From sequence record PQ390715.1: a stretch of 64,000 nt of DNA. One strand, written 5' to 3'. The notes below the pieces were generated by a model. It was given only the letters and a program-made list of their open reading frames with translations. It was not told the DNA's origin and searched no databases. Positions 36,180 through 36,437 of the stretch are shown piece by piece. The stretch's first letter is position 1; every line of letters begins with the position of its first letter. The DNA is from Escherichia phage SHEFM2K. The position numbers and the translations under genes were made by a program.

Positions 36180-36437
36180 TTATCTCATAGATCTATGCCA
36201 ACAATTACGCGGGGGACGTTTAAAAGTACTATCATGATCCTCCTGGCAAGTTATGCAGTACTTACATCCCTTAACGGCCTGGCGTCGATTCTCAGGGATT
36301 ATATCGCCGCAGTCGAGGCAATGTATCAGTGATTCTATTTGTGCGTTAATTTGCTTTCTAGCGTGGTTAACGGCGGCCTGAATCACTGCGTTAATCTCGT
36401 CTTGTTCGGCCCCATCTTTCGCGAATCCTACAGCCAT
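36180..36437 (-). CDS. TraR/DksA-family C4 zinc-finger protein
   Basis: CLDCGDIIPENRRQAVKGCKYCITCQ matches CxxC-N17-CxxC of TraR-like proteins. Confidence 0.65.
   Translation of the reverse strand: MAVGFAKDGAEQDEINAVIQAAVNHARKQINAQIESLIHCLDCGDIIPENRRQAVKGCKYCITCQEDHDSTFKRPPRNCWHRSMR

Follow-up and report, generated by a model that had tools for sequence, protein, structure and literature searches.

The zinc-finger gene and its product

The stretch analysed here (hereafter the window) comprises 64,000 nucleotides (nt) of Escherichia phage SHEFM2K (PQ390715.1). The gene under study is an ATG-started open reading frame (ORF) that occupies exactly 36180..36437 on the minus strand, stop codon included, and encodes a zinc-finger protein of 85 amino acids (aa) related to TraR, DksA and YbiI (MAVGFAKDGAEQDEINAVIQAAVNHARKQINAQIESLIHCLDCGDIIPENRRQAVKGCKYCITCQEDHDSTFKRPPRNCWHRSMR). 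An earlier note on this DNA had described a CxxC-N17-CxxC finger at this place without stating the strand; the spacing proved exact, and the peptide quoted there corresponds to residues 40-65 of the protein. A six-frame search of the 64 kb with the regular expression C..C-N10-25-C..C gave two further matches only, both in short spurious ORFs, and the same scan revealed no second TraR-like gene in the window. The CxxC pattern at this locus is not a chance occurrence. Furthermore, the ratio of nonsynonymous to synonymous substitution rates (dN/dS) between the window and two Asteriusvirus orthologues is 0.08-0.18, which indicates that the gene is expressed and under purifying selection.

Nucleotide matches place the window in the genome of an Asteriusvirus jumbo coliphage (121Q/PBECO4 group): a 3-kb segment surrounding the gene shows 97% identity with Escherichia phage UB and 91% with 121Q. 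All strong matches are jumbo phages of 310-390 kb belonging to the 121Q/PBECO4 group, among which 121Q and vB_Ec-M-J are classed as Asteriusvirus. The orthologue in 121Q, gp294, carries the RefSeq label 'DksA-like zinc-finger protein' and stands between gp293 (small hypothetical protein) and gp295 (GNAT acetyltransferase), the arrangement also found in the window. Phage vB_EcoM_CRJP21 encodes an identical protein (100%), and a database entry with 98% identity is labelled 'TraR/DksA C4-type zinc finger protein'. The family assignment is already known and reproduces existing public annotation of phages. The detail added here is the placement in the YbiI branch, the tip that keeps the DxA half of the TraR motif, the homology of the tail and the setting of the gene among promoters in a stretch homologous to a terminal repeat.

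Family placement and relatives

Residues 39-68 of the protein match Pfam PF01258 (zf-dskA_traR) with 42.7 bits for a gathering cut-off of 24.9 (E=5.4e-11), and the protein also matches PHROG 54, 'DksA-like zinc-finger protein' (E=1.8e-18). The profile search that the earlier note had proposed as a check thus returned a match above the gathering cut-off. Its assignment of the C4 finger to the TraR/DksA family is upheld by this Pfam match, by the sequence matches to solved structures and by a conserved pair of arginines. More specific models were matched below their cut-offs: TIGR02419 (NCBIfam, TraR subfamily) with 51.3 bits against 59.7, NF010268 (TraR) with 30.4 bits against 108, the YbiI equivalog NF008243/PRK11019 with 81.7 bits against 96 and, weakly, NF033459 (DksA) with 14.2 bits against 105 (E=0.04). 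The PRK11019 match extends over residues 1-72 of the protein (model positions 1-71). Since its score is under the equivalog cut-off, the protein is a divergent relative of YbiI and not an equivalog. The closest solved structures by sequence are YbiI (2KGO, E=2.9e-12) and RNA polymerase (RNAP)-bound TraR (5W1S/6N57, E=1.6e-5). From these matches, membership of the 85-aa protein in the superfamily is secure, and within it the protein is a divergent representative of the YbiI branch; its nearest characterised sequence is chromosomal YbiI of Escherichia coli, not TraR proper, and its profile scores do not qualify it for the TraR subfamily in the strict sense.

Alignment with a TraR-family profile by hhalign (probability 99.2%) is ungapped and pairs residues 19-73 with TraR 16-70, at an offset of 3; the TraR profile has a low diversity because the TraR query retrieved close TraR relatives only.

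Relatives of the protein are numerous. A word-indexed search returned 58 homologues, a full HMMER scan with the family profile gave 2,577 cluster representatives at E<=1e-3 (327 at <=1e-10), and tblastn found relatives in 967 phage records. Full-length relatives with 65-74% identity occur in T4-like Straboviridae, namely Citrobacter phages Moon and Ursula, Gaprivervirus RZ, Dhakavirus and Yersinia phages. In Ursula and RZ (the two examined), the homologue lies within the tk-rI-mobD cluster of small genes. The T4-like phage vB_EcoM_PhAPEC2 (NC_024794.1, 56957-57034) harbors a counterpart of the C-terminal 26 residues only (69% identity; PHROG 25948, 54 aa), which by its sequence would be either a truncated remnant or a separate small tail-derived ORF.

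Zinc ribbon, interface residues, tip and tail

The four cysteines of the predicted zinc ribbon (Table 1) are invariant in 56 homologues as well as in YbiI and TraR. Conservation of the cysteines, which the earlier note had made a test of its assignment, is hence complete. Other invariant residues in the 56-sequence alignment include R51, R52, G57, Q65 and D69. In TraR, three functional elements have been distinguished: an N-terminal helix with the DxxDxA motif, a globular domain and a C-terminal helix (PMC9239242, PMC6970531). Within the globular domain, R48 is directed to the rim helices, and R49 and E46 to beta'Si3 (PMC9239242, PMC6970531). The phage protein has equivalents of these three residues (Table 1), and TraR K50 is replaced by Q53.

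The N-terminal tip follows the motif M-A-x-G-[F/W]5-x-x-D8-G9-A10-x-Q12, which both the phage clade and bacterial YbiI conserve. In the window protein it includes F5-A-K-D8-G-A10: the DxA half of DxxDxA is retained and an aromatic residue stands in place of the first Asp. From the alignments, this tip is presumed to be the equivalent of TraR D6/A8 and DksA D74/A76. The tip of DksA, D74-R-A76-A-Q78, resembles D8-G-A10-E-Q12 of the phage protein. Both D74 and A76 are functionally critical in DksA (PMC4010833). The distance from the Asp (D8) to the first Cys is 31 residues in bacterial YbiI, equal to the spacing from TraR D6, and 32 in the phage protein. Position 11 is a Glu in the phage clade (D-x-x-E) and V or A in bacterial YbiI.

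The phage-specific C-terminal tail, FKRxPRNCWHRSMR, is invariant except for residue 75 in the aligned phage homologues, with T for K73 in two of them. It is homologous to the tail of bacterial YbiI (YNRRGSKDSQLR), and nothing comparable exists in TraR. The form [YF]NRRGSKDSQLR is almost invariant among many bacterial cluster representatives, and P0136 has a tail (HNRKVWHRSMR) intermediate between the phage and YbiI forms. Across the phage and YbiI tails, R77 is invariant and R85 is found in all but a few members. Both features of the YbiI family, MAxG[FW]xxDGAxQ and a basic tail ending in [LM]R, are present in the phage protein.

The AlphaFold2 model, for which the input alignment contained database homologues only, has a mean predicted local distance difference test score (pLDDT) of 71. 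A helix spans residues 6-31 of this model, and the zinc ribbon is accompanied by two short helices (49-54 and 62-70) and by a tail of low confidence. The predicted N-terminal helix, of about 26 residues, is as long as that of TraR. Foldseek matches at <= ~1e-3 were YbiI and RNAP-bound TraR only. Superposed on RNAP-bound TraR (6N57_M), the model gives 70 aligned columns, a target-normalised template modelling (TM) score of 0.66 and a root mean square deviation of 3.9 Å.

Table 1. Features of the zinc-finger locus, with positions in the window
Feature	Position	Strand	Evidence
Coding sequence, 85-aa TraR/DksA-superfamily (YbiI-branch) zinc-finger protein	36180..36437	-	ORF list; Pfam, PHROG and NCBIfam matches; dN/dS; orthologue of 121Q gp294
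N-terminal tip, residues 1-12, MAVGFAKDGAEQ	36402..36437	-	two alignments; motif list over 149 cluster representatives; hhalign
C4 zinc ribbon C40-x2-C43-x17-C61-x2-C64 (CLDC-N17-CITC)	36246..36320	-	six-frame regular expression; four Cys invariant; zinc binding predicted
E49-N50-R51-R52, matching TraR E46-A47-R48-R49	36282..36293	-	ungapped offset-3 alignment; R51/R52 invariant, E49 nearly so
C-terminal tail, residues 72-85, FKRPPRNCWHRSMR	36183..36224	-	homologue alignment; tail listing; low pLDDT
Shine-Dalgarno GAGG, 8 nt 5' of the zinc-finger ATG	36446..36449	-	sequence; fully kept in 121Q and vB_Ec-M-J
Upstream ORF, 48 aa, GTG start, 121Q gp293, PHROG 38664	36437..36583	-	ORF list; PHROG match
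Four GATC sites in 28 nt (TGATCAA repeats), leader upstream of gene	36643..36670	.	scan; TGATCAA copies in relatives
Nearest strong promoter-like site, TTGACA-17-CATAAT with TGn extended -10	36736..36764	-	scan, 11/12 matches plus TG; kept in 121Q and vB_Ec-M-J
GNAT acetyltransferase gene, directly downstream of the zinc-finger gene	35760-36116	-	

Comparison with characterised proteins

YbiI (PRK11019; PDB 2KGO) is the top match of the phage protein by sequence and by structure. The two proteins, of 85 (phage) and 88 aa, share MAxG[F/W]AxDGAxQ, the C4 finger, IPExRR and homologous tails. However, they are only 38% identical, V or A of YbiI is replaced by E11 in the phage clade, which also carries H25, C80 and H82, and the phage tail reads PRNCWHRSMR instead of NRRGSKDSQLR. 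Moreover, ybiI is a chromosomal gene located in an iron-metabolism operon (PMC2613031), whereas the phage protein is encoded by virulent phages. Overexpressed YbiI was reported, as data not shown, to rescue dksA auxotrophy (PMC2613031, 2009).

With F-plasmid TraR (5W1S, 6N57), a regulator that acts in the RNAP secondary channel independently of ppGpp, the phage protein has in common one predicted N-terminal helix of equal length, a C4 zinc globule followed by a C-terminal helix that the model shows only in part, the ungapped homology over residues 19-73 with equivalents of E46, R48 and R49, the DxA half of the tip motif and a model that superposes on the RNAP-bound form. The differences are the replacement of D3 by Phe, three additional N-terminal residues, an N-terminal segment of 18 residues that is not alignable, the K50 to Q replacement, and a shorter C-terminal helix followed by a conserved tail of 14 residues. 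With E. coli DksA, the phage protein shares the PF01258 finger. DksA has 151 aa, a two-helix coiled coil and a need for ppGpp (guanosine tetraphosphate), whereas the phage protein has 85 aa and, in the model, a single N-terminal helix.

Other small phage proteins with PF01258 are lambda Orf73, P2 Orf82, VHML Orf8, VP882 Orf61 (TraR_VP882) and Xenorhabdus bovienii Gp34. The phage homologues of TraR that were tested are products of early or lytic operons, in which they are surrounded by small ORFs without known function (PMC9239242; bioRxiv 10.64898/2026.07.27.740977), a setting that the window protein would share. Their genes are from temperate phages and their branch is that of TraR, whereas the window protein is a YbiI-branch member encoded by a virulent jumbo phage. 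RNAP binding and inhibition of rRNA promoters were observed for all five tested homologues; in addition, lambda Orf73 increased phage yield 3-4 fold (PMC9239242).

Promoters and leader

The strong promoter modules mentioned in the earlier note are real. Perfect TTGACA-N16/17-TATAAT sites number 12 in the window; all are on the minus strand, which is that of the gene, none is on the plus strand, and 10 of them fall within 30.0-47.7 kb. Furthermore, the 6 kb around the gene contain 44 promoter-like sites, compared with 22.8+/-3.7 in shuffled sequences. Eleven of the perfect promoters, with spacers of 16-17 nt, were examined and have AT-rich discriminators (0-3 G/C in eight of them) and AT-rich upstream flanks. 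Most perfect promoters in 30049-47725 (-) carry AGTACTG directly 5' of the -10 (…AGTACTGTATAAT) and have a discriminator of the form A(A/G)(G/T)TTACATC. These shared elements suggest a phage-specific class of early promoters and not a generic consensus.

The zinc-finger gene has no perfect promoter of its own. A strong sigma-70 promoter abutting the ATG was considered and rejected: a TATAAT lies by the Shine-Dalgarno sequence, but no acceptable -35 is found at 16-18 nt. The best candidate close to the ATG is a weak 9/12 site (36511..36483), so that the extended -10 site further upstream (Table 1) is preferred and is likely, from its sequence, to be the promoter of both the 48-aa ORF and the zinc-finger gene. 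No terminator-like site is predicted between this promoter and the zinc-finger gene. The predicted transcript, with a start near 36729, would comprise a leader of ~290 nt with the cluster of four GATC sites, the 48-aa ORF and the zinc-finger gene. Neither structured RNAs (Rfam at E<=0.1, 30-42 kb including the 330-nt leader) nor tRNAs (ARAGORN, whole window) were found.

The GATC cluster of the leader is the sole one with at least four GATC within 60 nt in the 64-kb window, in which GATC is rarer than expected (126 observed versus ~205). Several TGATCAA copies occur at the same place in 121Q and vB_Ec-M-J. The cluster could be a Dam/SeqA-sensitive element or the binding site of a regulator.

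Terminal repeat and neighboring genes

By BLAST mapping, 28.3-48.1 kb of the window matches, in collinear order, the direct terminal repeat of 21.5 kb annotated in vB_Ec-M-J. The zinc-finger gene is located ~11.7 kb from the inferred physical end and its transcription is directed inward. In the related phage fEgEco12, a repeat of ~21 kb was verified by restriction mapping (PMC13070987). The window extends beyond the inferred genome end at ~48.09 kb; the source record is therefore probably a permuted or circularised assembly.

The genes of the neighborhood are all small, located on the minus strand and mostly of unknown function. The stop codon of the upstream 48-aa ORF overlaps the ATG of the zinc-finger gene by 1 nt (TAATG), and this ORF stays open with conservative substitutions in two relatives. 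The two genes are probably co-transcribed and translationally coupled. T4-like phages also have an ORF overlapping by 1 nt upstream of their zinc-finger homologue. A conserved partner comparable to QisA of VP882 was considered and discarded, the three upstream proteins being not detectably homologous across the phage groups. The 48-aa ORF shares (E/M)YVVS(C/Y)G with an early 59-aa ORF (37315-37494, minus strand, PHROG 9374), and from this motif the two may form a paralogous family of tiny early proteins. Downstream, the GNAT gene has its own perfect consensus promoter (36173..36146), 7 nt past the zinc-finger stop codon, and the zinc finger-GNAT pairing is kept in 121Q and vB_Ec-M-J.

Other observations concern more distant parts of the window. 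An intergenic module of ~200 nt is repeated at 34560-34780 and 38240-38460 (minus strand, 85% identity), with a related piece at ~36670-36700. Its first part is a G+C-rich hairpin that holds a TTGACT -35 and is followed by TATTAT; then come CCCAC(A/C)GGGTGCATAA(A/G)TGTATCTATTATAT, AGTACTGAAAACTATTTTTAAAAAAGTACTTGCA and TATAAT. Its composition is suggestive of a cassette in which a terminator is joined to tandem promoters. Upstream of the zinc-finger gene there is a similar sequence, CCCATAGGGTGCACAAATGTAACTGTATAAT. A 213-aa protein of the early region (32050-32691, minus strand, PHROG 4301) has weak matches to protein-kinase domains, under the threshold (Pkinase E=0.0026, 17.6 bits versus 31.7); if these are real, the protein would be a candidate kinase for host takeover. 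Finally, 53291-62984 (plus strand) carries a tandem array of eight paralogous ORFs (358-433 aa), and matches to RCC1 repeats or RCC1-like beta-propellers were obtained for all three ORFs of the array that were scanned. 'Chromosome condensation regulators' are named in these phages in the work on fEgEco12 (PMC13070987).

Proposed function

We propose that the protein acts early and binds the secondary channel of host RNAP independently of ppGpp, with an uncertain effect on transcription, and our analysis gives this proposal a probability of roughly 58%. The protein would be expressed from the early region of the terminal repeat by unmodified host sigma-70 RNAP. Its N-terminal helix of ~26 residues would enter the secondary channel and bring the D8-G-A10 tip near the active site, while the C4 zinc globule would place E49, R51 and R52 on the beta' rim helices and beta'Si3. 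The short C-terminal helix and the basic, aromatic tail would contact the beta lobe/Si1 side. Binding would not need ppGpp, because a single N-terminal helix, as in TraR, takes the place of the DksA coiled coil. The kinetics of open complexes would be shifted and host promoters with short-lived open complexes, such as those of rRNA and ribosomal-protein genes, would be turned down. The consensus early promoters of the phage, with their AT-rich discriminators, would be spared, and the phage would in this way gain polymerase and resources, a role that has been proposed for lambda Orf73. The composition of the discriminator is linked to the sensitivity of promoters regulated by DksA and ppGpp.

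The earlier note had likewise suggested secondary-channel binding and a reprogramming of host transcription, which is plausible. Family membership, fold, conservation, purifying selection and genomic position are established here; the mechanistic steps beyond these are inferred. The proposal draws on the matches to PF01258, PHROG 54, YbiI and TraR, the superposition on RNAP-bound TraR, the conserved interface and tip residues, the dN/dS, the location amid dense sigma-70 promoters in the terminal-repeat homologue, the tested phage homologues and the reported rescue of dksA auxotrophy by YbiI. Reliance of the phage on a host polymerase that can be manipulated is plausible, given that Rak2-like phages are described as having early promoters of the RpoD-like type, late promoters like those of T4 and a late sigma factor resembling gp55, in an account that mentions no phage RNAP (PMC5259590). 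Furthermore, the replacement of the first Asp has a precedent in Gp34 of X. bovienii, which lacks D3 but binds RNAP as well as TraR and, although less active, complements a dksA deletion when induced (PMC9239242).

Several points weigh against this proposal. The scores against the TraR-subfamily and YbiI models stay under their cut-offs, and residues 1-18 and the tail lie outside all alignments with TraR profiles. The first Asp of DxxDxA is a Phe or Trp in the tip; for lambda Orf73, both Asp are required for full inhibition and a single D3N or D6N strongly weakens the protein (PMC9239242), and an NxxNxA variant of VP882 TraR is inactive. The predicted C-terminal helix (62-70) is shorter than that of TraR (58-73) and runs into a Pro-containing tail of low pLDDT. 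A C4 finger alone does not guarantee a DksA-like function. The authors who tested YbiI favored a role in iron metabolism (PMC2613031), and literature searches for a mechanism of YbiI returned only mentions in expression or regulon studies and a single data-not-shown statement. For the Asteriusvirus group, a literature search for transcriptomes or proteomes, or for this gene, found genome descriptions only.

The protein might instead occupy the channel without any TraR-like output. It would then bind RNAP with its zinc globule and helix but act mainly as a competitor that blocks access of DksA/ppGpp and of GreA and GreB, and would relieve the damping of phage early transcription by DksA. Such a role would fit a protein with conserved interface residues E49, R51 and R52 and a tip without the first Asp, the aspartates being needed for the function of DksA and not for its binding. 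Channel binders without regulatory effect are known, for instance Rnk. Host DksA lowers T4 early transcripts and a dksA deletion doubles the burst size of T4 (PMC6024815), and the close homologues of T4-like phages (65-74% identity) are located in clusters of the early type (tk-rI-mobD). However, D8-G-A10 and Q12 are nearly invariant in phages and bacteria, which argues for a specific action of the tip and not for a passive plug. Moreover, Gp34 still inhibits and complements without D3, and T4 early promoters are not inhibited by DksA in vitro (PMC6024815). We consider such a blocking role attractive but unlikely.

Even less probable, in our view, is a target other than RNAP, i.e. that proteins of the YbiI branch bind another protein or a nucleic acid through the zinc ribbon, the N-terminus and the tail, possibly in connection with metal or iron, and that the phage copy hijacks this partner. 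The most conserved parts that are specific to the branch, the N-terminus and the tail, have no counterpart in TraR, and the near-invariant YbiI tail [YF]NRRGSKDSQLR implies a specific interaction. An iron-related role is suspected for YbiI (PMC2613031), and some C4 proteins of the DksA family do not act on RNAP. On the other hand, the arginine pair that contacts RNAP is invariant and the Glu matching TraR E46 is nearly so, the predicted fold and helix length match those of RNAP-bound TraR, and rescue of dksA auxotrophy by YbiI has been reported (PMC2613031). The literature found on YbiI names no other partner.

A DNA-binding zinc-finger regulator of the phage promoter modules, acting for instance at the GATC/TGATCAA cluster, is very improbable: the unique cluster and the repeated intergenic modules adjoin the gene and the tail is basic, but TraR and DksA act without binding DNA, the Pfam, PHROG and NCBIfam profile searches of the protein found neither a helix-turn-helix nor any other DNA-binding domain, the modelled fold matches RNAP-bound TraR, and the homologues of T4-like phages lie in different intergenic contexts.

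The combination of an aromatic-x-x-D-G-A tip with an invariant tail could give an output or a partner unlike those of TraR and DksA, such as a second target contacted by the tail or an antagonism of host DksA and Gre factors in lytic takeover. That the YbiI branch, including the phage clade, forms a distinct class of polymerase-channel factors, or does not target RNAP at all, is a tentative reading of these sequences that we regard as rather doubtful.

Implications

As it stands, the protein is an ordinary member of a familiar superfamily and had been annotated before. Its remaining interest lies in the YbiI branch, with a non-canonical tip and a conserved tail that are common to virulent jumbo phages and T4-like phages. 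Should the protein bind the secondary channel, reprogramming of transcription initiation without ppGpp would not be confined to temperate phages and conjugative plasmids, and would extend to virulent jumbo and T4-like phages that depend on the host polymerase throughout infection. Secondary-channel binding would also provide the first functional handle on the widespread bacterial YbiI family, as represented by the cluster representatives detected here.

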